DNA of 56,342 bases, filler included, from Bradymonadales bacterium (GTDB lineage Bacteria; Bdellovibrionota; UBA2394), in NCBI GenBank assembly GCA_007693605.1. It is 4 parts of 4 records of this genome, joined end to end, with 100 filler letters (N's around TTAATTAATTAA, not from the genome) between each part and the next. Parts side by side here need not be neighbours in the genome. Positions count along the whole stretch, not along the records: positions 43,155 to 56,342 come from REDG01000050.1; 3 more parts are not named here. The stretch is one strand, 5' to 3'. A program made the translations under genes and the position numbers. Within the stretch, counting starts at the first letter, position 1, and every line of letters starts with the position of its first letter. The notes under the pieces are model-generated. The model was not told where the DNA came from and did no database searches. It was given only the letters and a program-made list of their open reading frames with translations. Shown here in pieces: positions 5,176 through 56,342 of the stretch.

Positions 5176-6123
5176 TCACTCTGAAATGCCCGCGACTTGA
5201 GCTTCACGAGCTTTCAAGAGACTATCTTTAAGGCTCGCCAGGGCGCGCTTGACGGGAGCCTCGCCTGTAGCAGTCGGGTAATTCTCTAGAGCCATTTGAA
5301 CTACAGCCCCATAAGAAGAATCTCTCTCCACCAGCTTCTTCAGATACTGAAGTGCCAAGACTTGGCTTTCTGCTTTGGGCTGAGGAAAATTTCTTTGATC
5401 AAGTTTGGGAATACGGAGAGAGTAACCGCTCTCGGTCTGTCCAATTCCAAACACAAGTTCAGAATCTCCTCGCAGTTCTTTCAAAAGAACCTCCAAAAGA
5501 GGGGCTGAGACACCGCGAAGTTCGCCCAACAGAGTTTCAGAAATGGCTGCCTTGCCCTGCCGATTTTTAATCGCTTTGATCTCTCCCAGAATTTCTGCTG
5601 AAGATCGGCTGGTCGCGGGGACATCGTCCTCGCGAAGAATGCCGTTTCGAAAGCCTCGGGGGCTTAAGTCCAATAGACCTACAAACTGCTCCACAATTTT
5701 GGTTCCGACTTGATCGCTTGAAGGATTTCCGTCTCCAGAGAAATCGTTCCGCCCCCCAGTCGTAGCCGCCTGAAGCAAAAGATTTCCCGCCCGAGAAGAA
5801 GGTCCCACTTCAGAGAGCATTCGATTCCGCAAGGCATCTAGAGCAAGCCTTTGCGCTTTGGAGTCTTCCGACAGAAGATTCTGAAGGAGCTGCTTTTGCG
5901 CCTCGCGCATCCTCCCCCAGTCGGTGCCATACAAATCATCTATTAGCTTCTGAATCCACTCCTCGCTGGGAGGAGGAGCAGAGGTTTCAGCCGCGACCAG
6001 CAATCTATCGAGCGGCTCAAGACCACAGGAGCTTTCAGAGTCAGCAGCTGACTCTGCCATATCAAAACTAAGGACAAAGAAAGTGATCAAAAGGCCTCGC
6101 ATCATAACCGACAAGGCTTGCAA
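5176..6123 (-). CDS. Hypothetical secreted helical protein
   Basis: 315-aa ORF with hydrophobic N-terminal signal; start may be a few codons downstream. Confidence 0.7.
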   Translation of the reverse strand: MQALSVMMRGLLITFFVLSFDMAESAADSESSCGLEPLDRLLVAAETSAPPPSEEWIQKLIDDLYGTDWGRMREAQKQLLQNLLSEDSKAQRLALDALRNRMLSEVGPSSRAGNLLLQAATTGGRNDFSGDGNPSSDQVGTKIVEQFVGLLDLSPRGFRNGILREDDVPATSRSSAEILGEIKAIKNRQGKAAISETLLGELRGVSAPLLEVLLKELRGDSELVFGIGQTESGYSLRIPKLDQRNFPQPKAESQVLALQYLKKLVERDSSYGAVVQMALENYPTATGEAPVKRALASLKDSLLKAREAQVAGISE

Positions 6124-11938: not shown

Positions 11939-13159
11939 ATGGGGCCTAGAAAGCTGAATTTTTCGGGATTTGGTGCTGTGTTGATCGTCGCGAGCGCCAT
12001 GGCCATGAGCCTCCCAACAAGCCTTCCCCTGTCGGCTTGCCCTCTTTCCAAGCTTATTAACGACCCAATTCAACCTGAAACCTTCCAGCCACTTAAGATG
12101 GCTGATGTCGCAGGTTTTGTGGATCGATTCCCGGTAAACCTCACGCCCGTTCAGGAATCTCTTGGGGGCGCAGGCAAGCCCTCGGTCATGGTTCCAGATA
12201 CCACTCGCTTTCGGTGGATAGAATTTGTTTACCAGTTGAGCCTGATCGACTTTAGCCAGCCAGGGGAGCCTGATATTGTGATGCGGGATCTGAGTGGCCC
12301 AAACGAAATATGGAGACCTCTGAAGATCTCTTCCGCACAAATTGAAGGATGGAGGCGATTGGGGCTTATTCAAGACAACGGAGACTTTAATCTTCAAGTG
12401 ACCTCCCACGAGCTTGTTCACAAGTTTGAAGAAGAGTCTGTCAAGTCCAGACAAGTTCAGTCCCCGATCTTTAGAGAGTTTAGAGAAGGCAGACATTGGC
12501 AGGCTTATCTTCGACCTTCCCGAACTTCTCACTATGAAGGAGGCTTCGACAGTGGTTTGTATTTTGCAAAACTGATAGTCAGCTCTGAGATTCCAATGGA
12601 CGATCTTCATATCGTCTTTTTTCATTTGCCCGATCTTTTAGACCCCGTTCGACAATCTCTGTTTTATCTTTTGGAGCGATCCGTTTTGCTAGAGGCGAGG
12701 TGGCGCAACTCGCACTCTGAAACACTTGAAGGACCCCCAGCATTTGAGTCTCTGATCACCCAATTCTTCGAGGGCGCCACCATTTTAAGAGAGCAGAATC
12801 TTCTGAATGGCTTTATCAACTTTATTAACCCGGCAGGTCGAATTCTTTCGACTTCTTCAGCTAAGGTGCCAAGCCTTAGCGATGTGATTAAGGGAATCAA
12901 CAAAGCGGCTGAAGGGAGCGCATTGGCTTACCATCGTTGGTTGGCCAGTGAAAAAACCATTCCCGTTTATCATTCAGAACAGCACTGGATCCTCATCAGC
13001 TATGCGGTTGAACGATTCCTCCGAAAAATCGAGAAAGACGGATTCGAAGACTCATGGCTCAGGCTCTTGATCGATCAATTCAGAACGAATCGCCTCTGGC
13101 TTCAAGAGCGCCTGGAGTTTTCAAAGGAAGACGAGGCGCTCTTTGTTTTCCCTGACTGA
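11939..13159 (+). CDS. Hypothetical secreted protein
   Basis: 406-aa ORF with N-terminal hydrophobic signal; no family recognised. Confidence 0.7.
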   Translation: MGPRKLNFSGFGAVLIVASAMAMSLPTSLPLSACPLSKLINDPIQPETFQPLKMADVAGFVDRFPVNLTPVQESLGGAGKPSVMVPDTTRFRWIEFVYQLSLIDFSQPGEPDIVMRDLSGPNEIWRPLKISSAQIEGWRRLGLIQDNGDFNLQVTSHELVHKFEEESVKSRQVQSPIFREFREGRHWQAYLRPSRTSHYEGGFDSGLYFAKLIVSSEIPMDDLHIVFFHLPDLLDPVRQSLFYLLERSVLLEARWRNSHSETLEGPPAFESLITQFFEGATILREQNLLNGFINFINPAGRILSTSSAKVPSLSDVIKGINKAAEGSALAYHRWLASEKTIPVYHSEQHWILISYAVERFLRKIEKDGFEDSWLRLLIDQFRTNRLWLQERLEFSKEDEALFVFPD

Positions 13160-15046: not shown

Positions 15047-15146
15047 NNNNNNNNNNNNNNNNNNNNNNNNNNNNNNNNNNNNNNNNNNNNTTAATTAATT
15101 AANNNNNNNNNNNNNNNNNNNNNNNNNNNNNNNNNNNNNNNNNNNN
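15047..15146. other. Artificial contig linker
   Basis: N44-TTAATTAATTAA-N44. Confidence 0.98.
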
Positions 15147-29176: not shown

Positions 29177-29276
29177 NNNNNNNNNNNNNNNNNNNNNNNN
29201 NNNNNNNNNNNNNNNNNNNNTTAATTAATTAANNNNNNNNNNNNNNNNNNNNNNNNNNNNNNNNNNNNNNNNNNNN
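29177..29276. other. Artificial contig linker
   Basis: N44-TTAATTAATTAA-N44. Confidence 0.98.
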
Positions 29277-36438: not shown

Positions 36439-36707
36439 AATTGCTCGGCCCGATCGAGGGCCGGTTTATTTATCCAGGGGCGTCTACCAATTCCGCCTGG
36501 TCTTTGCGAGTGAGCTGTATTATTCAATCCCCCTGTAGATTCCGCGATCTACTGAGTGCTCAGTTGGCGGAATTGCTCGGCCGGATCGAGGGCCGGTTTA
36601 TTTATCCAGGGGCGTCTACCAATTCCGCCTGGTCTTTGCGAGTGAGCTGTATTATTCAGTTTCCCTGTAGATTCCGCGATCTACTGAGTGCTCAGTTGGC
36701 GGAATTG
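36439..36707 (+). repeat. 2 x 132-bp tandem repeat with sense and antisense tRNA-Leu segments
   Basis: Units start at 36444 and 36576; near identical; the last unit runs into the tRNA. Confidence 0.92.
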
Positions 36708-43054: not shown

Positions 43055-43154
43055 NNNNNNNNNNNNNNNNNNNNNNNNNNNNNNNNNNNNNNNNNNNNTT
43101 AATTAATTAANNNNNNNNNNNNNNNNNNNNNNNNNNNNNNNNNNNNNNNNNNNN
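43055..43154. other. Artificial contig linker
   Basis: N44-TTAATTAATTAA-N44. Confidence 0.98.
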
Positions 43155-44326
<1,172 letters not shown>

Positions 44327-44479
44327 ATAAAGTAGCTCAGGTTGTTCACCTCAGCTCTTCAGTTAAATTACTGATGCATTGATTGAATTGAAAATTCCAA
44401 GAAACTGCATAAATGCAGATTTCTCGGCACTTGAGTCAAAACTTTAGACTCTTATTATACGCTCTATCACCTCTTCAAA

Positions 44480-44491
44480 TGTCAAAGAACA
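44480..44491 (-). promoter_or_regulatory. rrn boxA antitermination element
   Basis: Minus strand TGTTCTTTGACA. Confidence 0.75.
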
Positions 44492-44856
44492 CTTCACTCG
44501 CGTTGTTTTGTCACAATGCCGAATGGGAATAGTATGCTTCTACCCAAAACTGAAATCGAAAGGCAACGACGAAAATGAAAATTTTCTGAAATATTTTCAG
44601 GCCCTAGAAAACCCTCCGGAAGGCCTCACTCAAGGACCACATCGAGGGCCTTGATTTCTTGCATTTTGCCACCTACCAGAGTTCCGGACGGAGGCAATTT
44701 TGGGGAGTGGCGATCAACACCAAATAGTTTCAACCAGAGAAGGCCTGGCTCGGCGGATTCGATAGGCCCGCAAATCCTAAAGAGCGGAATGGACAAAATT
44801 TGTCATAAATGCGGGCTTGTTGGCGCCTAAGCCCCGAATTTTACTAGAAACTAGAG

Positions 44857-44872
44857 TGGCTTAGGATTTGCT
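44857..44872 (+). promoter_or_regulatory. Putative sigma54 promoter
   Basis: TGGCTTAGGATTTGCT (GG-N10-GC) upstream of 44911. Confidence 0.5.
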
Positions 44873-44910
44873 CTTTGAAGGACTAACAACGAGTTAAGGA
44901 GTATGGAGCA

Positions 44911-45492
44911 ATGAAATTTTTGATTTTGACCGTCACCAGTCTAATTGCACTAGGTATCGGCGAAGCGGACGCCAGAACGATTAACAAGGGCGACTCTTCG
45001 CTTTTGAGTCAAAGTAACGGGGGAGACCTGAGTGCTTTACCAGGGCCAGCAGAGTTTCAGAGCTGTAGATTGAGGGCAGCTGAGTCAATCCATGAATACT
45101 CACAGTCAAATGATCCTGATCAACTCCTTGAGTTTATAAGTGCAGTGGCAGACGGCCACTGCTCCGGGAGTCTAAACTGCCAGGAACTAATAAACGATTA
45201 CCTCAGCCTAAGACGCAACTGCTCTCGACACTCGAGAGGCATGCAGCACAACAATTATCAAGAGGGTGACTGCGAAACCTGCTCTTCTAAGGCGAATCAA
45301 ATCAATCAATCTTGTGGGGGCTTCGGCGGCGTGAATACGAACTGTGAAGACTGCCTACAGCACGATAGTGCCTGCCACACATGCGACAACAATGCAGTCT
45401 GCGAGTCGCAATGTGAGTATGAACAAACAGAGACCGCCTATCAGGAATGTATCTTAAGCTGTAATGCTCAATTCCCCTGCTTCAGGCAGTAG
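44911..45492 (+). CDS. Secreted Cys-rich protein (16 Cys)
   Basis: Signal peptide ending ADA; SD AAGGAG; CxxC and CxxxC pairs. Confidence 0.8.
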   Translation: MKFLILTVTSLIALGIGEADARTINKGDSSLLSQSNGGDLSALPGPAEFQSCRLRAAESIHEYSQSNDPDQLLEFISAVADGHCSGSLNCQELINDYLSLRRNCSRHSRGMQHNNYQEGDCETCSSKANQINQSCGGFGGVNTNCEDCLQHDSACHTCDNNAVCESQCEYEQTETAYQECILSCNAQFPCFRQ

Positions 45493-45512
45493 AACCGCTC
45501 GTAGTCAGAAAA

Positions 45513-45588
45513 TGGTGGACCCAGACGGGATCGAACCGACGACCTCCTGAATGCAAATCAGGCGCTCTCCCAGCTGAGCTATGGGCCC
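45513..45588 (-). tRNA. tRNA-Ala(TGC)
   Basis: GGGCCCATAGCTCAGCTGGGAGAGCGCCTGATTTGCATTCAGGAGGTCGTCGGTTCGATCCCGTCTGGGTCCACCA; G3:U70 pair. Confidence 0.97.
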
Positions 45589-45875
45589 ACTTCGTTCGGG
45601 CCCACAACTCAGCTGAACGCGCCTTCTGTTCAGGCGCTCCTCTTTCAAGTTCGCCTCCGGCTCAACCAGCTGCCCTATGGGCCCACTTCGTTCGGGCCCA
45701 CAACTCAGCTGAACGCGCCTTCTGTTCAGGCGCTCCTCTTTCAAGTTCGCCTCCGGCTCAACCAGCTGCCCTATGGGCCCACTTCGTTCGGGCCCACAAC
45801 TCAGCTGAACGCGCCTTCTGTTCAGGCGCTCCTCTTTCAAGTTCGCCTCCGGCTCAACCAGCTGCCCTATGGGCC
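45589..45875 (-). repeat. 3 x 96-bp tandem repeat with sense and antisense tRNA-Ala segments
   Basis: Identical units at 45589, 45685, 45781 directly abutting the tRNA 5' end. Confidence 0.95.
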
Positions 45876-45987
45876 TTCCTTACTCACTTTCAAACAAATG
45901 AGTCGTCACCAAACTATTCCGAGCTTGGCTTCCTTGCCAAGTCAAATCCCTCTCAATTCAGAAGCTTTGCCAAGGGCCTAAAAAAAT

Positions 45988-47049
45988 CTACCTAGAATCG
46001 GCTGAAATGAGGGCCGTCAAATGGAGTCGCGCTTCCTCATATAGAATCCGCACCCTTTCTTTGGTCAGGGAGTGCCCGCCATTCACTCTCAAGAAGTCTT
46101 CGTGTTGTCCGATTTGTTTAAAGGTAAGACCAGGACCACCCTCCAAACCATGATACAAGACGAGGATGGTTCGATGCCGTTCATCCTTCAAACGAGGCAC
46201 GGCCCTCTTTAGTGCCCGCAAGGAATCTTCATCTTCGACACGGGCCGAAGGATCTTTCCCCCCACTGGGCAGAGAAAGCTCGCCACCTGCACCAAAAGCT
46301 CCTACCAGCTTCCTGCGCCTTGCGTCCTCGTTTAGCCAATCCGCGTATTCTCGATTCAAAACACGAGTCAAAGGGGTCGAAAGCTGCAGCTTCCTACTTG
46401 GCTGGAAAGTCTCAACGACTTTGACAAGAAGGATATTGCCGAGCCCCACAAGTTCATCAAAATAATAGCCCTTTTCCGGCAGGTTTTTCGAAACAAGGAA
46501 CTGGCGAGCTATCATCTTTACAAGACTAAGATTCTTCTCAACCAAAAGGTTTCGAATTTCCAGCCTCCCTTTCATTTTTTCTTGAAGCAGGCCTTCGTCG
46601 GCTTCTGACAGACCCCAGTCCTGCCAGCCCAAGGGTCCAAGGGAGTCGAGATACAGGAAAAGCCAGTACGAAGCCGTGCGATTGAACGATTCGTCCTCTT
46701 TGAAGAAATCATCCCAACTCTTCAGAATCAAACCAGTTTGCCTCGTCTTTTGAGCATTGATTCTCCCAAAAAATGCTTCGAGCGCTGCCTCCGGCACTCG
46801 CTCTTTTAAAAACTCGACAAGCTCTCTCTCTAAGCCCTCCATGGCGAAAAACACATCCGCTCTCTGCTCATGACTTAGATCTCCAAAGTTATCTGCCTTC
46901 CTAAGAGAGGCTAAGCTTTCGAGCCTCTCTCCTGCCAGAAGAATCTGGTCGGCGCAGCCGAAAAGCGGACGACCAATAGCCCCGGCATCAGTAAACCAAA
47001 GGCCAATGATCCCTATCAAGAAAACCAGTCGAGTACGAGAACCCCACAT
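45988..47049 (-). CDS. Sigma70-like protein (regions 2 and 4) with N-terminal signal peptide
   Basis: RNLLVEKNLSLVKMIARQF..DELVGLGNILLVKVVETF; LTFKQIGQ..LTKERVR; N-terminus MWGSRTRLVFLIGIIGLWFTDAGA. Confidence 0.75.
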   Translation of the reverse strand: MWGSRTRLVFLIGIIGLWFTDAGAIGRPLFGCADQILLAGERLESLASLRKADNFGDLSHEQRADVFFAMEGLERELVEFLKERVPEAALEAFFGRINAQKTRQTGLILKSWDDFFKEDESFNRTASYWLFLYLDSLGPLGWQDWGLSEADEGLLQEKMKGRLEIRNLLVEKNLSLVKMIARQFLVSKNLPEKGYYFDELVGLGNILLVKVVETFQPSRKLQLSTPLTRVLNREYADWLNEDARRRKLVGAFGAGGELSLPSGGKDPSARVEDEDSLRALKRAVPRLKDERHRTILVLYHGLEGGPGLTFKQIGQHEDFLRVNGGHSLTKERVRILYEEARLHLTALISADSR

Positions 47050-47160
47050 CACGCGACCAGGGCTAGTCCAAAGCGAATCGAAAGCCAAGCTCGTCCCACA
47101 GATATTTACAGGCAACCAGAGCGAAACGAAGGGGCCGCTCCGCCGTCAGCCGTCGGGGGC

Positions 47161-47715
47161 CTAAGCCCTTGAAACATACTCCCCCGACTCCGTGTTTATC
47201 ACAATCGAGTCTCCTGCATTCACAAAGGGGGGGACCCCCACCACAAGACCTGTCTCTAAAGTGGCGGGCTTTAGCACATTGGTGGCTGTCGCATTCTTTA
47301 TGCCCGGCTCTGTCTCGGTGACCTTCAAGGTTACCTTTTGAGGCAATTCTACCGAGATCGGTTTTTCATCCACAAAGACCACATCGATACTGGAGTTGGG
47401 CAAGATGAATTTCATCACATCCCCAACAATGGCGACACTCAAATGAATCTGCTCATAGGTTTCTGAGTTCATGAAGACAAAGAACTCCCCCTCTTGATAG
47501 AGGTATTCCATCTTCACATGATCGACGCTCAGTTTCTCGACATCATCTCCTGACCGAAAACGGTGATTGTAGTTAGTGCCCGTTTCGAGATCTTTCATCT
47601 CGACCTGCATCATCGCCCTTAAATTGCCCGGCGTGTGATGAGCCGAAGACACCACCTTCACGACTTTTCCATTAAACCGAATGACCTGACCTTTACGAAT
47701 TTCTGTGGCTTTCAT
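47161..47715 (-). CDS. efp: Elongation factor P
   Basis: YLY..G..FVFM..ETYEQ, TEPGIK, KPATLETG, VPPFV, GEYVSRA. Confidence 0.96.
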   Translation of the reverse strand: MKATEIRKGQVIRFNGKVVKVVSSAHHTPGNLRAMMQVEMKDLETGTNYNHRFRSGDDVEKLSVDHVKMEYLYQEGEFFVFMNSETYEQIHLSVAIVGDVMKFILPNSSIDVVFVDEKPISVELPQKVTLKVTETEPGIKNATATNVLKPATLETGLVVGVPPFVNAGDSIVINTESGEYVSRA

Positions 47716-47855
47716 GAAAAATCAAAATGCTTCGATTACCGAACGAAGTCAATCGACAGGGCCTCTTGAAAGCAGGAGGGACAAATTTTGCTGCCGGGCG
47801 TCAGAAATTGTCGTTTTTTTGGAGGCTTCCGATTGAAATCATTGAGAAAAATCGA

Positions 47856-47871
47856 CGGCATCCAATTTGCA
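47856..47871 (+). promoter_or_regulatory. Putative sigma54 promoter of a small peptide gene
   Basis: CGGCATCCAATTTGCA (GG-N10-GC). Confidence 0.5.
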
Positions 47872-47907
47872 ACACTTGTTAAGCTTGTAAACGGGAGGAA
47901 ATAAGAA

Positions 47908-48060
47908 ATGCGTAAATTTATGCTTAGTCTTTTATTGGCCTTTGGAAGTCTCGGCCTCAGCTCAAACGCCATTCTGCAAGCCAGCAGTGATGAGGGAGAG
48001 TCTGAAGCCGATTCTGGCAGTGGCTACGAAGAGCATTCATCCGCTGAGTTTATCTATTAA
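47908..48060 (+). CDS. Small secreted acidic peptide (50 aa), absent from the ORF track
   Basis: SD GGGAGG; MRKFMLSLLLAFGSLGLSSNAILQASSDEGESEADSGSGYEEHSSAEFIY; hairpin after the stop. Confidence 0.7.
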   Translation: MRKFMLSLLLAFGSLGLSSNAILQASSDEGESEADSGSGYEEHSSAEFIY

Positions 48061-48150
48061 GAAGGCGACTCCCCCAAGGGGATGCGCCTGCCGAGGGACC
48101 AAACACCCTCCAACTCAGAGCTTGAGCTTTCGAAAGAACAATGACTCGTG

Positions 48151-48192
48151 AAAATCCTGTGGGCGCTGTGGTGTGCTCACAGGATTTTTTTT
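48151..48192 (+). terminator. Intrinsic, probably bidirectional, terminator
   Basis: AAAATCCTGTGGGCGC...GTGCTCACAGGATTTTTTTT. Confidence 0.75.
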
Positions 48193-48270
48193 GGGAGTGT
48201 CGCTAAAGGCCCATCTGCCCCTTCGCTCATGTCGACCTTCGGTCGACACCGAGAGTTTGGTGAGAGTCTC
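48193..48270. repeat. Family B element, 78 bp with imperfect terminal inverted repeats
   Basis: GGGAGTGTCGCTAAA...GTCGACCTTCGGTCGAC hairpin...TTTGGTGAGAGTCTC. Confidence 0.7.
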
Positions 48271-48271
48271 T

Positions 48272-50527
48272 TCAGTATTTCGACGCAATTCTGCCCGACT
48301 GCATCTCGGTCCTTAGTGGAACTGGAGCCCGAAACACTTTACCCAAGATTCCCATGGCTCCCCCGCAAGAAACCGCAGCGGTTCTCGCTCCCTCTCCGGC
48401 CCCAGGCTCAAGCATCAAACTTGTCGAGGGGGGATTGTGATCAAATACAATTCCAATCAACTTAATCACGCCACTTCTTATATCTCTTTGCAAAACTGGA
48501 CCTCCCGAGTGACCCCCAAGAATGGGAGCGGTGGTCGAGAAAGTGACTGGGATCCTCTCTACCCATGGCTGGTCTCTCTGAGCCTGAAGCAAGGGCTCGG
48601 GCAAACTCCAATCTGGGTGGGAGCTCAATTCGCCGGGGCCCGACCTAGCCGCCTCTGCGGCTCTAAACAAATCGCCCAGCGTCGTGATCTCAGGGCCTCT
48701 CTGGCTCTCAGGATCAGCGTCTAAAGATCGAACACTGAGCCCTCCAAGGCTAAAGCGAATATCCCGATCAGGACTAGAGTCTCCGACCAAGCCCAACTCG
48801 CTTTGAATCTCATGGATCCTCTCTCTGGCATCCGTCTCTTGAGCCATTTCCGTCTGGTGATAGGCTCTCAAGAAGGTCAGCAGCTCCCCAACTAACTCGT
48901 AGGCCAGTGCCAAAAGAGGCTCGGCATCCGGATCAAAGCCCAGGGGAAGAGCTCCCGCCTTCGCTTGCTCCAGGAAATTCCGCAAAGCGCTAGGATCTGA
49001 AACAAGAGAACCCTCCAACAAAAAGCGGGCCCGCCTCTGAAAATAGGCCTCTGCCTCGGCGTGATCAACTCCCAACTCAGCGTGGCGGCCACCAGTCAAT
49101 TCCTCGCCATAAAGAAGCTCGAGAACTGGCTTCGCTCGTTCGTCGGTCCCCAAGCCAAACTCCTTCCAGATCCAGTAAAGAGATTGAGCCAGCCGCTTCA
49201 CTTCAAACTCAAAATCAAATTGAACAGGAGACATTTCCTGAATCTCGGCAATCCCAGAAGTATCGTGATCTCCTGAGTTTGCGGCTTCTGCCAGCTCGGC
49301 AATGGCTAGAGCCTGGGCAAAGAGTGGCGAGAGATAAAAACTCGGAGCTTCAAAAATTCTATAAAGTTTGGTCAGCTCAAGCAGATCGTCTGACACTTCA
49401 GGATTTAGCAGATTCCCAATGACAGAAAGGGCGTTCCGATAAGCGCGACGGTTTTCTGGAGACAGTTGACGAATAAACTCCTCTTCCTCCTGCTTTCGCG
49501 CTCTCATCCAAGGCCCTGATTCTTTCAATTGTTCCGACATCATCTTAGCCAGCCCAAGAGAGTTTTTTAGACTGCTTCGCTCGACTAAAAGCTCCTCTAG
49601 AGCCTCTTCGCCGAAGCTCTCAATTGCATTCGAAAGGAACTCCAGTCGGCTCTCCATAAAGCGAATATCGAAGGGCAAAATGACTTCTCGCTCAAACTCC
49701 AGCTCAGGAATCGTCTGCCGTTGATCGACAGGCGCAGGATAGCCGACCACCAAATGCTCAGCTTCCGGCGAAAGATCCCATGAGGACTCCATCACAATGT
49801 AATTCTCCGTCTTCAAGGGCTGACCGTTTTCGTCGTAGACTCGCAAAAGAGCAAAATCAAAGGCGAGCCCTGGCGCGCTAAAATTTTGTTCATCTCCCCC
49901 AAACCGGACCAGGCTTTGCTCGGGTAAAAAAACCAAGCGAACATCCTCGAACACTCGGAAAATCTCCAAAACGAATCGATCAGAATAGTCGAGTCTTCGA
50001 ATTCTTGCCACACGGCCAGGCGATTCATTCTCCGCCTCAAGCCGCGCAAGAACAGCCTCAAGATAGAAGGCCCCCAATTCAGCTTCTGCCCTCTCAATAG
50101 CTTGACTCACCTCATTCGAAAAATCGACTTGAGACTCAAGAAACCATACGCTCATCGGGAGCGGAATCTCTTCACTAAGTTCTCCAGCCAGAAAGCCATC
50201 CCGTAAGAGCCTTTGAGCCCTCTGGCTGCCGGCCCTCACGGCCGCCCAATCTACAGCATGCGCGGCTGTCGCCAAAAGACCGCCATTGGAAACAGTGACC
50301 GCCGTTCCCCCCGACTCTGGAAGGTGTACGACCGCCTTTTGAATCCACTCTCGTTCGCTAGGCCGAAGTCCAAAAATAGGAGTCTCAGCCACTTCCTCTA
50401 AACTCAAAAGACTTGGACGCCTTTGGTCCGAATCCGTCCCGAAAGCCTCGAAGCACGGCCCGAAGATTAAGAGAACAAAACAAGCCACAAAAGACCGCTG
50501 ACGCCTAGAGACCTGAAACACCCCCAA
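48272..50527 (-). CDS. S46 family (DPP7/DAP BII-like) peptidase
   Basis: GGTAVTVS..GLLATAAH, DVRLVFLPE, FGGDEQNF, DFALLRVY, GYP, GGHSGGPV, IGIVFD. Confidence 0.85.
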   Translation of the reverse strand: MGVFQVSRRQRSFVACFVLLIFGPCFEAFGTDSDQRRPSLLSLEEVAETPIFGLRPSEREWIQKAVVHLPESGGTAVTVSNGGLLATAAHAVDWAAVRAGSQRAQRLLRDGFLAGELSEEIPLPMSVWFLESQVDFSNEVSQAIERAEAELGAFYLEAVLARLEAENESPGRVARIRRLDYSDRFVLEIFRVFEDVRLVFLPEQSLVRFGGDEQNFSAPGLAFDFALLRVYDENGQPLKTENYIVMESSWDLSPEAEHLVVGYPAPVDQRQTIPELEFEREVILPFDIRFMESRLEFLSNAIESFGEEALEELLVERSSLKNSLGLAKMMSEQLKESGPWMRARKQEEEEFIRQLSPENRRAYRNALSVIGNLLNPEVSDDLLELTKLYRIFEAPSFYLSPLFAQALAIAELAEAANSGDHDTSGIAEIQEMSPVQFDFEFEVKRLAQSLYWIWKEFGLGTDERAKPVLELLYGEELTGGRHAELGVDHAEAEAYFQRRARFLLEGSLVSDPSALRNFLEQAKAGALPLGFDPDAEPLLALAYELVGELLTFLRAYHQTEMAQETDARERIHEIQSELGLVGDSSPDRDIRFSLGGLSVRSLDADPESQRGPEITTLGDLFRAAEAARSGPGELSSHPDWSLPEPLLQAQRDQPWVERIPVTFSTTAPILGGHSGGPVLQRDIRSGVIKLIGIVFDHNPPSTSLMLEPGAGEGARTAAVSCGGAMGILGKVFRAPVPLRTEMQSGRIASKY

Positions 50528-50661
50528 CCACTAGAGTTTTCTTACGGCCCGAGTCAAGCCCAATCCATCGCCTGCTGCGGCCCCTACAGCTTCAGCGCTT
50601 TGTCCAGTTCCCTTAAGAGCCCTGTACAAAGTCGCTTGACCAGTGAAACGAATTTGCCTAC

Positions 50662-51369
50662 TTGAGCAAGCTTATGTTGAGAATGGTCGGAAAGCTTGGG
50701 GCGCTCCTCTTCATCGCCTTTGTCCTGAACTCGAGCCTCGTGGCAGAAAACACTTCGAGCTGCCCAGAGAACATAGCGATGGCGGGTGAAGGAAGCCTAG
50801 CTCATGGAGTAGAATTCTCGTTTTCTGCCAAAGGCAGTCGAACTAAACTGAGCGAACAGATTAAGACGATAAAAGATGCTGACGGCAATTTTAGCTTTCA
50901 GTTTTCTTCTGAAGGTCCAAGATGTCCAAGATGGAAAGATTTAAGGGCTCTTCTGCAGCTAGGACGCGGCCCGATCACCCCCCTGGAAGAATGGCATGAA
51001 CAAATTGTAAGGACCCTTCAAGATCTTGACGGGGTTCTTGAGTTGTCAGATCTAGCATCCTTTCAATTGGAGACTCTCAAAGCTCATTCTGTGGTTCAAG
51101 AAAGAGTGGCGACGCTTAGGGAACTTCTTGATGACCTGAAGGATCACGGACTCTGTTGGTGGGATGGCGCGGGCCTGATCGAAGCGCATATTCGATTTCA
51201 ACTATCGGAGACGACCATGGCCCGATTCTCAACCAATGCCCGATCTAAGAATCAAGAGGATGAAAGGAGGCAGCTCTCAGCAAGCACCTGGCTGCTTGCC
51301 CTACAAAGTCTACGAGAACAAGAAGCAAAACTTCGAACCAGCCCTCCCAAAACTGCGATATTCAAGTAG
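50662..51369 (+). CDS. Hypothetical secreted protein
   Basis: Signal peptide; 235-aa ORF. Confidence 0.65.
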   Translation: MSKLMLRMVGKLGALLFIAFVLNSSLVAENTSSCPENIAMAGEGSLAHGVEFSFSAKGSRTKLSEQIKTIKDADGNFSFQFSSEGPRCPRWKDLRALLQLGRGPITPLEEWHEQIVRTLQDLDGVLELSDLASFQLETLKAHSVVQERVATLRELLDDLKDHGLCWWDGAGLIEAHIRFQLSETTMARFSTNARSKNQEDERRQLSASTWLLALQSLREQEAKLRTSPPKTAIFK

Positions 51370-51433
51370 CCCCTTCCCAGGCAAATTTGTTGATGCCCTG
51401 ACCACAGGATCGACTCGAAAACTCATTGGACCA

Positions 51434-52525
51434 CTAGTCTTGGCGATCGTAAGATAGCAGATGCTTCCGAATTCTCATCTTCAAGCCGGCAAAGAGCCGT
51501 TCGTCCCTTTCCGAAGCATCAAGATATTCTTGCTCTAGCCCAGTTCGATATTGAACCAATTTCCGATCAGGATGCACAATCAACGGCCCTCCGTTAATCG
51601 GCATCCAACGAGCTATTCCACGCCCGGTACTCTCGTACATGGACCGGCCTTCCTGAAGGAATTCATCCCAAACTTCTTGGGTGAGACTCCAGAAACCCGA
51701 TCTCTCCTCTACAAACGAGTCGACGACAGAGCAGTCTCCTTCGGGCAGTGGATGATGCCAGTTTCGTCCGAGTTCTCTTGCGAGATCAATCCGTTCGCCG
51801 TTCTGCTCTCGCACCTTTACATTCTCTTGGGCATCTAACCAGGAATACGGATAGACCGTGATGCGGTGAGTGCGGTCTAAGCCCTGATAATCTCGGCGAC
51901 CCATATCTCGATACTCCCGACCGGGAATCGGAGAATAGTTCGAACATTCCCACCTAGGAAACTCCTGAGAGTGCTCCCAAGCGCCTGTGCATGAATACCT
52001 GGGGCTGTCATCTAATGCCTTCACTTCTCTCGTCCAACGACCAGCAGTATCTTCCAAATTTTCAACCTCCCAAAGCATTCCGCCCGAGTAAGTATAGGTT
52101 CTGTCGGCCTCGTAACGCCAGCGCTGGCTATGATGCTTCATCACAAAATCAAGCTCGCCCTTCTTATTGGTCAGAAAGATGATATGTTGCAGATGAATGA
52201 CATTCTCTTCGTCTGTTCTGACCCAGATCTTTTCCTTCACATTCAGCTGATAGTTCTCGGGCGTCACCGAGCTATCCAACAGGGGATACATTCTAACAAA
52301 GCGTTGAAAGTCTGAATTGACAGAAGCATGATACTCTCGATGGTCAAGCTGGTAGCCCTCAAGTAGCGCCTCAACCTCGTGGTAGTTGTAATCCACCATA
52401 TAACAGCCAGACATCCCCAAAATCGCCTGACGATCCTTCTCCCTTTGCAAATTTTCGGCCTTTGCCGAACCGAAACTCACAGAAACCAAGAACAAAAACA
52501 AAAATTGAATACGAAATACAGTCAT
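51434..52525 (-). CDS. DUF6607-like secreted protein
   Basis: DRQAILGMSGCY.V, LQHI, KHH.Q.W.YE, DDSPRY, P.PGREY; SD before ATG 52525. Confidence 0.7.
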   Translation of the reverse strand: MTVFRIQFLFLFLVSVSFGSAKAENLQREKDRQAILGMSGCYMVDYNYHEVEALLEGYQLDHREYHASVNSDFQRFVRMYPLLDSSVTPENYQLNVKEKIWVRTDEENVIHLQHIIFLTNKKGELDFVMKHHSQRWRYEADRTYTYSGGMLWEVENLEDTAGRWTREVKALDDSPRYSCTGAWEHSQEFPRWECSNYSPIPGREYRDMGRRDYQGLDRTHRITVYPYSWLDAQENVKVREQNGERIDLARELGRNWHHPLPEGDCSVVDSFVEERSGFWSLTQEVWDEFLQEGRSMYESTGRGIARWMPINGGPLIVHPDRKLVQYRTGLEQEYLDASERDERLFAGLKMRIRKHLLSYDRQD

Positions 52526-52933
52526 GACTCTCCCTTTTCTTTCACAAGCAACTCTACTGATACAGATTATCAATATCAAAACAAGCTCGGGGTCAAACTG
52601 AATCTAAAGGTTTTGATGGGCTCATTCAAAAAAGCTCGAAGACCCGCCTTGGTCGGCCTCGCTCGTTGGTCGCTTCGCCCCGAGCCCCTACAAAGCGCTT
52701 TGTCGAGTAAGCTCTCACAGCGAGCCAGGACTTAAGTAAGTTTCTCTTGCTCTGAAAGAAGCCTATAACCAACTCAAGTAATCGAGAATTTTTCTTCTGA
52801 GACGATAGCGATCTCACCTAGAACACTCCCCTTACTAGTTTACGAGTCTAATAAACCAAAGGTTTGGGCAGCTGACTGCGCACTAAAGCTTCAGCCGCTT
52901 AAATCAGCTCCACGAGCACTCAAAGGAGAACAC

Positions 52934-53194
52934 ATGAACCAACCAGAAACCAACAAAAACCTCAAGACTGGCAACCAAAATGCCGACAACAAAAACCAGT
53001 CGGGCAATCAGAACCAACAAGAGTCTAAAAACCAGTCTGGCAGCCGAGAAGACCTTAAGAACCAATCAGGCAATCAGAACCAACAAGGCTTCAAGAACCA
53101 GTCTGGCAATCAGAATCAACAAGAGTTCAAAAACCAGTCCGGCAATCGAGAAGATTCTAGACATGAAGGAAGAGACAAACCGACTGCTAATTGA
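52934..53194 (+). CDS. Small Q/N-rich repeat protein
   Basis: SD AAGGAG; five KNQSG units with synonymous codon variation. Confidence 0.8.
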   Translation: MNQPETNKNLKTGNQNADNKNQSGNQNQQESKNQSGSREDLKNQSGNQNQQGFKNQSGNQNQQEFKNQSGNREDSRHEGRDKPTAN

Positions 53195-53475
53195 CCGACA
53201 AATCAGCTCAATAAAAAATGAGCACTCCCTCTTCGAGAGGAATTCTACAGAGAAAAGCCTTTCGGAGATAAACTTCAAGATCTGTCGACGAGCTTGAAGG
53301 GCCTGAGTCATTGATCCGTCGAATGAAATCTCTGAGGTGCAAACTCGATTAAATGACCGGGTCTTGCACTTCAGCTTTCAACTTCAACTGAAATGACTCT
53401 CGATAAAAATCGTCACGAAAAGGCATAAAGCTAAATAGGAAAAAACATGAAGCTAAATAGAAAGAATACAAGTTT

Positions 53476-54873
53476 ATGAAATCGACCTCTCAAAGAAAAC
53501 TCATAGAGTTCCTCAGTTTTTGGTCGCTGGCCCTGATTATAAGCGGTTGTGCTAGCTCAAAACAAGAGGCGATGCTTGACACGATCGGGAGCCCTCAAAC
53601 TAGACCAGCGACCTTTAACGCTCTCGAACAAGATTTTCGTGCAGCCGAAAGAGATCGCGTCCACCTCATTTCTCCCGCTAGATATATGGCCGCTCAAAAG
53701 TCTTTTTCAGAAGCTCGAGCGATTCAATCTACAGGAGAACCCGAGAAGAGTTTCTCTGGCAAACTAGAGAACGCCCGATCGGAATTGGATGCGGCGATCA
53801 TTTTCTCTAGGCAAAATCGAGACCGAATGAATCCCCTCATCAATGCGCGCGAGATCGCCCTTGAATTCAGCGATGCCGAGCCTGCCAACCGAGAACTGAG
53901 AAATCTTGAAACCCAGTACTTGAGTCTTGTTAAAGATCTAGACGGCCGAAATTCTAGAAATCGCGCTTTGAACCGCATCCCAGCGCTCACAGAGAGATAC
54001 CAGAACCTGACAATCAAAACCCTTCAAGAAAAGCATCTGGGTGAAGCGACCAACAACCTGCGTATTGCGAAGAACGAAAGAGCAGACAGACTCGTCCCCT
54101 CGACTCTTGCAGAAACGGAACAGACCATTAAAACGGCAAGAGAATTCATTGCTCTGAACGCCAATCTTGAGTCTGAGCGAAGAATCACCCAGATGGGCGA
54201 AGAAGCCTCTACAGCTTCACGCCGGCTTTTGAACTTAACCAGACAGACCGCCTCTTCGAGAGATCTCTCTCCTGAAGACCGAGCCTTAAGAACAGAGGCA
54301 ATGATGCGCACTGCAGGTCAAGACTCTGAGCGGCTTCAAGATGAACTTTCTGGATCTGAAAGAAGATTGTCGGAAGAACAAGCGAGATCATCGGAGTTGA
54401 AAACAAGATCAGAAGACTATGCGAGTCTTGAACGAAGGTTAGAGCAAGGGGATCGAAAGACGCAGCGCTTTCAAAAAGTCCAAGAACTCTTCCAAGAAGA
54501 AGATGCAGAAGTATCTCGACAAGGCGACAACCTGATCATCCGGCTCAAGAAAATGAATTTTGAGGTGAACGAAAGCAATATTCCGAGCCAATCTTTCGCT
54601 CTTCTGAGGAGAGTGCAAACGGCAATTCAGAGCTTCGACGACCCCTCCATCGTGATTGAGGGACATTCTGATTCGACCGGAGATGCGAGCTTGAATATGG
54701 CGCTTTCTGAGAGACGGGCTCAGGCTGTAAAAGAATACTTTCTATCGAGCGAAGCGCTGAGACCGGAAAGAGTCGCCGCGAGGGGATTCGGGTCAGAGAG
54801 ACCCTTGGCCTCCAATCAATCAAGCGCAGGCCGAGCCATTAACCGCCGAATCGACATCGTGATCAAAAACTAA
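53476..54873 (+). CDS. OmpA-family peptidoglycan-binding lipoprotein with coiled-coil N-terminus
   Basis: ISGC lipobox; IEGHSD, LSERRA, GFG, NRRIDI. Confidence 0.9.
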   Translation: MKSTSQRKLIEFLSFWSLALIISGCASSKQEAMLDTIGSPQTRPATFNALEQDFRAAERDRVHLISPARYMAAQKSFSEARAIQSTGEPEKSFSGKLENARSELDAAIIFSRQNRDRMNPLINAREIALEFSDAEPANRELRNLETQYLSLVKDLDGRNSRNRALNRIPALTERYQNLTIKTLQEKHLGEATNNLRIAKNERADRLVPSTLAETEQTIKTAREFIALNANLESERRITQMGEEASTASRRLLNLTRQTASSRDLSPEDRALRTEAMMRTAGQDSERLQDELSGSERRLSEEQARSSELKTRSEDYASLERRLEQGDRKTQRFQKVQELFQEEDAEVSRQGDNLIIRLKKMNFEVNESNIPSQSFALLRRVQTAIQSFDDPSIVIEGHSDSTGDASLNMALSERRAQAVKEYFLSSEALRPERVAARGFGSERPLASNQSSAGRAINRRIDIVIKN

Positions 54874-54892
54874 GAAGGAAAGACTAAAAAAT

Positions 54893-55627
54893 ATGAAAAA
54901 TTTAAACACCACTCGTATGAAACAAAATCCAAATGTCATGGGCCTGCTTGGGCTTGGCATCTTCACTTTTCTCGTGGGCTGCGGAGACGATCAAGCCTCG
55001 CTGAGTCAGAGGGCCGACTCTGCCGCTGATAGCATTGCCAAAACAGCGGGTGATGTGAAGGATGCAATTGTGGGAGAAACCGAAGAGACGCGAGAAGAAG
55101 CCGAGGCAAGATTCGCAAACGAAGAGGCCGATCTAAAGAAGAAGATTGCTGAATTGGAAGCCAAAATAGAGAATGAAACTGTACGCGAAGTGAGAACGGC
55201 AGAAAGAGCTCGCCTCAAAAAGCTCAATGAGTCTCTGGCCAAAGCCGAAAAGGATATTCAGAGCTTCCTTGATTCTGGCTCCGCCCAGTGGAAAGGAAAG
55301 CGAGAGGCGGCCTCTGCTTCTCTAGAAGACGCAAGAGACAGAGCCTCGTCTGAACTAGATCGACTCGAACTCAAGGAAGATATCCGCTCGAAACTCGAAA
55401 GCCTTGAGTCGAAGATCGATAGCATCGAGGAAGAAGCCAAAAAGGCCAGCCCCGCAAGAAAACGAGTTCTCGATAATCGACGAGCAGAACTCGAAAAGGC
55501 CCACAAGGATTTAGAAAAAGAATCGTATCTCTTTCAGATCTCGGTCAAAGAGGAATGGGATGATTTTCAAGACTGGTTCTCTGAATACTTTGAGAGTCTA
55601 TCAGACTCCGTAAAGGAACTGTTCTAA
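54893..55627 (+). CDS. Coiled-coil lipoprotein
   Basis: LVGC lipobox; charged helical repeats. Confidence 0.75.
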   Translation: MKNLNTTRMKQNPNVMGLLGLGIFTFLVGCGDDQASLSQRADSAADSIAKTAGDVKDAIVGETEETREEAEARFANEEADLKKKIAELEAKIENETVREVRTAERARLKKLNESLAKAEKDIQSFLDSGSAQWKGKREAASASLEDARDRASSELDRLELKEDIRSKLESLESKIDSIEEEAKKASPARKRVLDNRRAELEKAHKDLEKESYLFQISVKEEWDDFQDWFSEYFESLSDSVKELF

Positions 55628-55676
55628 AGCCCTCAGGGTAGAGCCATCTGATAAACTTTTTTATCCAAGCATCAGC

Positions 55677-55706
55677 AGGGCAGCGTCGGCAACGGCGCTG
55701 CCTTTT
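55677..55706 (+). terminator. Intrinsic terminator
   Basis: AGGGCAGCGTCG-GCAA-CGGCGCTGCCTTTT. Confidence 0.7.
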
Positions 55707-55773
55707 ATGTTGGTGGGGAGACCCCCCATGAACTTTTCGGCCTTGGGGGCACTGGAGGGGCCAAGAAAGCGAT

Positions 55774-56268
55774 CTAAAGTGACTGAGGCTCAAGTCCCCC
55801 CTCTTCGACAATTCTTACCGAGCCTCTGAGCGCCCTTAGTGTTTTCTCCAACCTCCCCTGAACAGCTGCTTTGCCCATGCCCTTCCCGTCATTCAGTCGA
55901 ATGAGCTCCGGATCTTGGCCAATGCCTTCGAGTGTCATGGGCCCTCTTCCACCCAAGCCAAAATGGGCTTCAACGATAAATCGGTCTGTAGGGCTCAAAA
56001 GACCCAAGATTTCTTGAACCACTACCGACAAGCGATAGTCTCGATGAAGTCGATCGACCCCCCTCAAAAGAACTGGTTCAGGCTCAGGCTCGGGTGCCTG
56101 CGTTCTTGAAAAGTCCCAATCGGATGAAACCTGTCGTCGAGCGTTCCTTCGAAAGCGCTCCAACTCATCGGAGAGATCACGAAGCATACTGAAGACTGCG
56201 AATGTCGAGAACTGAGCCCCATGGTCTGGATGAAAGCGATCAATGGCCTTCAGAAGCGATAGATGCAT
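55774..56268 (-). CDS. Sigma70-like protein fragment (regions 2.2-4), paralogue of 45988-47049; 5' part disrupted or missing
   Basis: LLKAIDRFHPDHGAQFSTFA; LSPTDRFIVEAHFGL..MTLEGIGQ; in-frame stops upstream of 56268. Confidence 0.7.
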   Translation of the reverse strand: MHLSLLKAIDRFHPDHGAQFSTFAVFSMLRDLSDELERFRRNARRQVSSDWDFSRTQAPEPEPEPVLLRGVDRLHRDYRLSVVVQEILGLLSPTDRFIVEAHFGLGGRGPMTLEGIGQDPELIRLNDGKGMGKAAVQGRLEKTLRALRGSVRIVEEGGLEPQSL

Positions 56269-56342
56269 AAGCTGCGGTAGTTAGGGTAAGCGTTGACAAG
56301 ACGCGCTTGGTCAGTGGCGTATTTGTCTACGATTTTTACGCA

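Follow-up and report, generated by a model that had tools for sequence, protein, structure and literature searches.

Predicted export of a sigma70-family protein and research into sigma domains

The gene at window positions 45988–47049 (minus strand) raises a simple question: what work might a sigma70-family protein do when its N-terminus predicts export? The window is the whole analyzed stretch of 56,342 nucleotides. It consists of 4 contigs of one 2.19-Mb genome, 90% complete, and the gene lies on the last of them (43155–56342). N spacers at 15047–15146, 29177–29276 and 43055–43154 separate the contigs, so gene order across these joins is meaningless. The organism probably belongs to Bdellovibrionota, judging by its EF-P: the ten closest named sequences, 57–86% identical, carry the labels Bdellovibrionota, Deltaproteobacteria or Bacteriovoracaceae.

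An intact gene with a predicted export signal

Based on translation, profile matches and codon score, the gene encodes a sigma70-family protein of 353 aa with a predicted export tag, hereafter P0001. Its translated frame is intact across 353 codons, running from an ATG at 47049 to a stop codon that ends at 45988. Upstream lies efp on the minus strand, and downstream are tRNA-Ala and three 96-bp repeats; no anti-sigma gene adjoins P0001 among these neighbors. The repeat array (45570–45875; 3.2 copies of a 96-bp unit with 99% identity) extends over the 5′ end of tRNA-Ala, and a 111-aa open reading frame (ORF) over it is probably spurious. A similar tandem repeat is found beside tRNA-Leu near 36439–36707. 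On the plus strand, a gene for a 193-aa secreted protein with a Cys-rich C-terminal half (44911–45492) is convergent on tRNA-Ala.

Signal-peptide calls were made by rule-based scoring and by eye, for P0001 and its relatives alike. The first-pass annotation had described a sigma70-like protein with a Sec signal peptide, and both the translation and the rule-based scores agree with that description. Residues 1–24 (46978–47049, minus strand) score as a Sec/signal peptidase I substrate, with a basic n-region (R5 and R7), an uncharged 12-residue h-region (residues 8–19) and a c-region (A22-G23-A24) forming an AxA site; by the AxA rule, cleavage would fall after A24. A true start downstream of the hydrophobic segment had been named as a possible objection. 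Codon score, however, is below zero upstream of codon 1, ranks codons 0, 1 and 11 as the best starts and puts the start upstream of that segment; conservation of the signal in the family (see below) likewise opposes a downstream start. Shine-Dalgarno energies do not discriminate among starts (−3.0 at the P0001 ATG, a genome median of −3.3, and −5.9 and −5.6 at internal TTG codons 107 and 169).

While the signal features of the N-terminus stood, a lone Cys had been overlooked. C32, the sole Cys in P0001, is followed by the start of an amphipathic helix (I36, L37 and L38), and we refer to this segment (46933–46956, minus strand), recognized by sequence and pattern match, as the lone-cysteine tag. 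The strict form of the tag, derived from sigma factors of relatives (15/21 match), was defined as Cys with a hydrophobic residue at +3 or +4 and another at +7. P0001 has Ala at +7, failing the strict form and fitting the relaxed pattern only. A lipoprotein, processed by signal peptidase II, was considered and rejected: P0001 has no lipobox, and its Cys lies 12 residues past the h-region with D and R in between.

Sigma regions and a degenerate melting motif

The assignment of sigma regions 2 and 4 was borne out by several searches. Pfam profiles for regions 2 and 4 match residues 169–244 and 289–315, both at E ~1e-3 and below cut-offs, TIGR02937 scores 43.4 bits (cut-off 42.9) and the PDB sequence match has an E of 7.7e-08. 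The feature match to sigma70 clusters is 0.94. A structural model built from a 93-row alignment has a mean pLDDT of 78, exceeding 85 in the sigma2 and sigma4 folds. Its residues 123–243 match SigA domain 2 (4x8k_A; Z 9.1, rmsd 2.2, 115 aligned) and residues 275–353 match SigR region 4 (5fgm_A; Z 8.7, rmsd 2.0, 65 aligned); Z values of ~9 are modest for helical proteins, and the matches are partly circular because the input alignment consisted of sigma factors. The model obtained from the single sequence was poor (pLDDT 47), and a fold search with it gave no match at E 0.001.

The ~140-aa helical linker of the first-pass annotation holds for most of its length, except that the last ~40 aa are sigma region 1.2. 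The linker proper (residues 33–120; 46690–46953, minus strand) has no assigned family, and a fold search with it gave no match above background; its pLDDT is ~70–77 over residues 31–90 and below 50 over residues 98–113. Region 1.2 (residues ~123–161; 46567–46683, minus strand) is joined straight to region 2.1 in the RpoS-type style, as indicated by model superposition, phmmer and alignment: phmmer matches residues 136–229 to RpoS, and the model helix at 120–136 aligns with the first helix of region 1.2, which ECF sigmas lack. A profile test for region 1.2 on residues 33–160 gave no score, and the profile score obtained at the alignment step came from residues 154–175 and is not a clean test. 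An alternative placement at residues 57–98, where a profile made from linkers of relatives reached 5.7 bits (1/1000 shuffles), was dropped, as structure and alignment point to ~123–161.

Regions 2.1–2.4 occupy residues 162–246 (46312–46566, minus strand) according to profiles, the PDB sequence match and alignment. In E. coli sigma residue numbering, anchored on the RpoD of this genome, E199, K210, F215 and T225 of P0001 match D403, K414, F419 and T429, with the acid kept at 403. Region 2.2 departs from the consensus at conserved sites (G411L, Q406G and E407L), a divergence that could weaken core binding. The melting motif does read LSTPLTRVLN, as first annotated, at residues 223–232 (46354–46383, minus strand), with the changes F427L, Y430P, W433R and W434V. 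Among ordinary sigmas in the same alignment 65/66 have an aromatic residue at 430, whereas P0001 has P, R and V at 430, 433 and 434. The gap between regions 2 and 4 is 27 aa in P0001 versus 87 in the RpoD and FliA of this genome, which confirms the annotated absence of region 3. Region 4 itself (residues 274–351; 45997–46230, minus strand) was delineated by alignment, profile and model. Its HTH turn has 13 residues versus 4, in agreement with the ~9-aa insert described earlier (~46072–46098), and is accompanied by an RpoD-like recognition helix, TKERVR (46048–46065), whose E-R-x-R pattern is kept in P0001 and found in 9/40 family members.

Tagged sigma-like proteins in Bdellovibrionota

No close homologue or orthologue of P0001 was found in the databases searched (one search was limited to lengths 194–618), the best match having an E of 4.5e-10 and covering the sigma domain only. 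By eye, the signal-plus-Cys pattern was present in none of 175 database matches, and matches of SigK/SigE type have a hydrophobic start of their own. Within Bdellovibrionota, we found 43 sigma-like proteins with a signal peptide and Cys in 19 genomes from 5 families, including 11/14 genomes of P0001's family; these numbers show presence and not frequency, since candidates were hand-picked and judged by rule and eye. The P0001 genome also encodes three ordinary sigmas with charged N-termini and, on another contig, a second signal-plus-Cys sigma. From 13 same-family genomes, 40 sigma-match regions were taken, chosen for long frames or weak scores. They contained 28 region-2 ORFs besides a split RpoD. 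Four of these lack their 5′ end, and signal and Cys occur together in 23 of the 24 that remain. The suspicion that homologues lack the signal was thus not substantiated, given that 23/24 intact atypical sigma ORFs of the same family keep it. Ten regions from 21 other genomes of the phylum yielded 7 more signal-plus-Cys proteins in two families, 1 cut copy and 6 ordinary sigmas, and 20 regions from 25 further genomes held 23 ORFs (11 with signal and Cys, 2 with a signal and no nearby Cys, 10 without signal). In five single-contig genomes no candidate was found by size, and two ORFs checked there have no signal. A search of 151 genomes returned essentially RpoD alone, and one of 49 genomes had 142 weak matches beyond those listed; neither bears on distribution.

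The first-pass annotation had also considered an uncleaved anchor. This option is disfavored by the short h-regions (median 15 aa) and positively charged n-regions (26/30) of the 30 members scored, cleavage itself being a prediction. Lipoboxes and second membrane segments are absent from all 30, and in 24/30 the n-side has a more positive charge than the 10-residue stretch that follows the h-region. Cys is absent after the tag in 25/30 members and makes up 0.06% of residues versus 0.23% in ordinary sigmas of these genomes. The label of sigma mimic, on the other hand, suits P0001 and does not extend uniformly to its relatives. An acid is present at 403 in 34/41 members, and an aromatic residue at 430 in 33/41 and at 434 in 13/41; P0001 is one of 5/41 members without an aromatic at 430, 433 or 434. 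With 33/41 members still aromatic where E. coli has Y430, loss of melting is not a trait of the whole family.

Several other arrangements were observed among these loci. At L212 and L211 (G021:C35:23500-28500; C14:7500-12000), atypical sigma genes stand in tandem, four at the first locus and two at the second; signal and Cys are visible in five of them, and one gene is cut by the region edge. At L053, L055, L059, L067 and L230, tagged sigmas reach 800–1300 aa, their sigma domains being flanked by long stretches without an assignment. Loci L077-L080, in four same-family genomes, encode paired small region-4-only proteins without signal peptides.

The tag on other proteins and the secretion machinery

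We then looked at the tag outside sigma factors, using our own gene calls, which bring some false positives into the counts. The strict tag occurs at +4..+23 in 36/463 signal-like soluble ORFs of this genome versus 4–11/463 in four later position ranges, and in 19/900 non-signal ORFs. A scan of 40 tagged proteins (29 with the strict and 11 with the relaxed form) left 29 without a Pfam match and gave matches for 11: 8 cytoplasmic-type, 1 periplasmic S41 protease and 2 ambiguous. The cytoplasmic-type domains are SpoVR+DUF444, PrkA AAA, ATP-grasp, DnaJ, Pol-beta nucleotidyltransferase, NUDIX, GNAT and a sigma3/TetR-like HTH. Given the tagged S41 protease, the two ambiguous cases and the 29/40 without a match, the tag alone does not mean cytoplasmic delivery. 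Loci L171 and L174 (G000:C42:121537-132530) encode a tagged SpoVR+DUF444 fusion and a tagged PrkA AAA protein 5 kb apart, that is, a normally cytoplasmic three-part system bearing export signals. The 775-aa product of L172 (G000:C71:12002-14392) is tagged too and combines a phosphoesterase domain with HTH-like repeats (sigma3/TetR-like). On the contig of P0001, an unrelated protein with signal peptide and Cys by eye (50662–51369, plus strand; from translation) has no Pfam match over cut-off, and two further signal-plus-Cys proteins without an assigned family are encoded elsewhere in the window, at 5176–6123 (minus) and 11939–13159 (plus).

Matches over cut-off in the genome comprise 4 secretins, 8 ATPases of PilB/GspE/TadA type and 12 prepilin motifs. 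VipB and VirB4, searched as one marker per system, gave no match in this 90%-complete genome, and one FlhA-family gene lies beside fliA. The secretins, pilus/type II ATPases and prepilins, together with the lack of a VipB or VirB4 match, fit a Sec-first route. The histidinol dehydrogenase and purE families occur in 14/14 family genomes; by these two markers there is no sign of host dependence.

Origins, divergence and broken copies

Three orthologue pairs of tagged sigmas from one genus have pN of 0.13–0.30 versus pS of 0.72–0.76, with dN/dS of 0.05 and 0.11 for two pairs and saturation in the third (pN 0.30 vs pS 0.76). The same comparison for ordinary sigmas gave a pN of 0.023 for FliA and 0.008 for RpoD. 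Judged by these three pairs of relatives, tagged sigmas are under purifying selection, yet fast-evolving. A region 2+4 tree was built with FastTree from 81 rows, excluding 11 near-identical ordinary sigmas and rows without region 4. Seven tagged proteins of P0001's family fall within the FliA clade (support 0.98) and others among RpoD/RpoS-like sigmas, with weak deep nodes; terminal branches have a median of 1.24 in tagged versus 0.10 in canonical sigmas of the same genomes, ~12x longer. ECF-type tagged members also exist. As far as sequence comparison indicates, tagged sigmas derive from RpoD/RpoS-, FliA- and ECF-type sigmas.

The window also contains the 3′ part of a paralogous sigma gene (55774–56272, minus strand), whose HTH insert has, by alignment, the same length as that of P0001. 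A repeated element truncates this gene, and the missing 5′ part was not found in the assembly: 0/5 candidate flanks match the target duplication. The end of this multicopy insertion element, recognized by 7-bp target duplications at other copies, occupies 56273–56342 at the contig end. The element that splits the paralogous gene (G000:C27:2197-3465) is ~1.27 kb long and has, by eye, a 369-codon transposase-like frame. At L074 (G003:C3), a single in-frame stop separates region 2 from region 4 of a tagged FliA-type sigma.

Comparison with known systems

P0001 is similar to sigma70 group 2 (RpoS-type) and group 4 (ECF) in regions 1.2, 2 and 4 and in their folds, and shares with ECF sigmas the absence of regions 1.1 and 3. 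It differs from both groups by its signal peptide, Cys tag and 9-aa HTH insert, and by having neither melting aromatics nor an anti-sigma neighbor. Its domains make it a member of the sigma70 family, but it lacks a defining feature of groups 1 and 2 (region 3) and departs from the ECF group in having the region 1.2 helix and no adjacent anti-sigma gene. Pro-sigmaK and pro-sigmaE of Bacillota and pro-BldN are likewise compact sigmas whose N-terminus is extended by a hydrophobic or removable segment. These pro-sigmas act in the producer's cytoplasm, whereas the P0001 extension consists of an n-h-c signal and a ~90-aa linker, with an N-terminus common to non-sigma proteins. The alphaproteobacterial PhyR similarly has a sigma-like domain that may not initiate transcription, but it is cytoplasmic, ECF-like and receiver-fused, while P0001 ends after region 4 and has no receiver match. 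Phage T4 gp55, SPO1 gp28 and AsiA are foreign proteins that seize or block host RNA polymerase and, by analogy, P0001 would most likely work like a phage sigma or anti-sigma. Phage sigmas and anti-sigmas, however, are expressed from injected DNA within the infected cell, whereas P0001 is encoded on the chromosome and would pass through envelopes in protein form. Nucleus-encoded plastid sigma factors have an N-terminal targeting peptide and a polymerase in another compartment, as proposed for P0001; theirs is eukaryotic import within one cell, in contrast to the bacterial Sec export predicted here.

No report of exported sigma factors was found in the literature searched, which lay mostly outside subscription journals and bioRxiv supplements. 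In the sections covered, an ECF reclassification describes extensions at the N-terminus and one with a membrane helix at the C-terminus, none of them termed an export signal (bioRxiv 2019.12.11.873521), and a predation review makes no mention of sigma or signal peptide and describes effector delivery as hypothetical (PMC12428579). We rate the export-tagged sigma architecture as undescribed; the proposed reading of P0001 as a delivered sigma would be categorically new.

A proposed route into prey and its alternatives

We lean toward P0001 being a tagged effector that is exported by Sec, delivered into prey and binds RNA polymerase there. The partner of sigma domains exists only in the bacterial cytoplasm and the N-terminus predicts export, so delivery into another bacterium is the simplest joint solution; the co-cargo, dependent on ATP and acetyl-CoA, raises the same puzzle and leads to the same solution. 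Sec very probably carries P0001 to the periplasm, where signal peptidase I would cut after A24. The lone-Cys amphipathic tag, common to dozens of unrelated cargo proteins, would then probably direct it through the outer membrane and into a bacterium in contact with the cell, most likely by a type II, type IV pilus or Tad-type machine or a predator-prey junction. No route for a Sec substrate into the prey cytoplasm is known in this phylum, and predation by this organism is itself presumed solely from its phylum. In the prey cytoplasm, P0001 would quite probably dock on core RNA polymerase, with sigma2 on the β′ clamp helices and sigma4 on the β flap. According to the sections of PMC4598750 covered here, region 2.2 is the main interface to the β′ coiled coil, regions 2.3–2.4 capture the melted −10 strand, sigma4 binds the −35 element and the β flap, and ECF sigmas also have no region 3; the loss of region 3 is therefore no sign of inactivity. 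P0001 would most likely compete with prey sigma and park polymerase in non-opening complexes, a prediction made because it keeps an RpoD-like −35 helix without Y430, W433 and W434. Relatives with intact melting residues may redirect prey transcription. More broadly, and tentatively, it is possible that Bdellovibrionota predators deliver sigma repertoires via a Sec-plus-lone-Cys route, where melting-dead copies would silence prey and competent ones would switch on prey regulons.

Other readings place the protein elsewhere or give it another partner. P0001 might be a membrane-tethered pro-sigma for own use, freed into the producer's cytoplasm by proteolysis like pro-sigmaK and pro-sigmaE. Its best profile and database matches are indeed SigE/SigK, whose N-termini are hydrophobic, and removable N-terminal extensions are described in the covered sections of PMC4598750 and bioRxiv 2019.12.11.873521. 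Yet the SigK/E match begins at residue 148–149, leaves the N-terminus outside and stays far below equivalog cut-offs, the charge bias predicts an N-in, C-out topology (24/30), the same N-terminus occurs on non-sigma cargo, and ~12x longer terminal branches than those of canonical sigmas are unlike partners of the cell's own polymerase. We consider own use quite improbable. It is likewise unlikely that P0001 is delivered but bypasses core polymerase, either as a decoy for anti-sigmas or for activators, or by free binding to DNA, in PhyR-like mimicry. FliA- and ECF-type members do exist, region 2.2 of P0001 is partly diverged, and binding of an anti-sigma by a sigma mimic is established for PhyR (PMC4598750, sections covered). 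Against this, the acidic core-binding position is kept in 34/41 members, and P0001 combines region 1.2 with an RpoD-like region 4.2 and shows no ECF signature.

Export could also end at the periplasm or surface, in a non-transcriptional role such as scaffolding or extracellular DNA binding with the Cys as an anchoring handle. The tag on a periplasmic-type protease and the lack of type III, IV or VI marker matches other than flagellar FlhA in the 90%-complete genome would agree with such a role. We nevertheless give it little chance, as sigma2 and sigma4 are retained together across three sigma classes and ATP- and acetyl-CoA-dependent co-cargo would have no substrate outside the cytoplasm. The tagged sigmas might otherwise be by-products of tag shuffling, fused to an export cassette and then decaying, with P0001 inert. 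No orthologue of P0001 was found, it is among the few members without aromatics at 430, 433 and 434 (5/41), and two copies are broken (55774–56272 and L074); still, its intact 353-codon frame, the confident sigma2 and sigma4 folds (pLDDT > 85) and purifying selection in relatives make this very unlikely. Finally, the target might be a bacterial-type RNA polymerase in a eukaryotic host organelle and not a prey bacterium, a reading we find highly improbable. The genome is small (2.19 Mb) and nucleus-encoded plastid sigma factors travel with transit peptides, but the co-cargo PrkA, SpoVR and DUF444 are bacterial systems and no ATP/ADP translocase match was found, a weak point given that the control was also blank.

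Sigma factors are defined as cytoplasmic, and the repeated gain of export signals under selection implies work outside the producing cell. If the target of P0001 and its relatives is the prey polymerase, this would be a new way for one bacterium to control the gene expression of another and, if true, a phage-like transcriptional takeover carried out by a cell via protein transfer. The tagged proteins and their short tag offer concrete candidates for what contact-dependent predators deliver into prey, and how.
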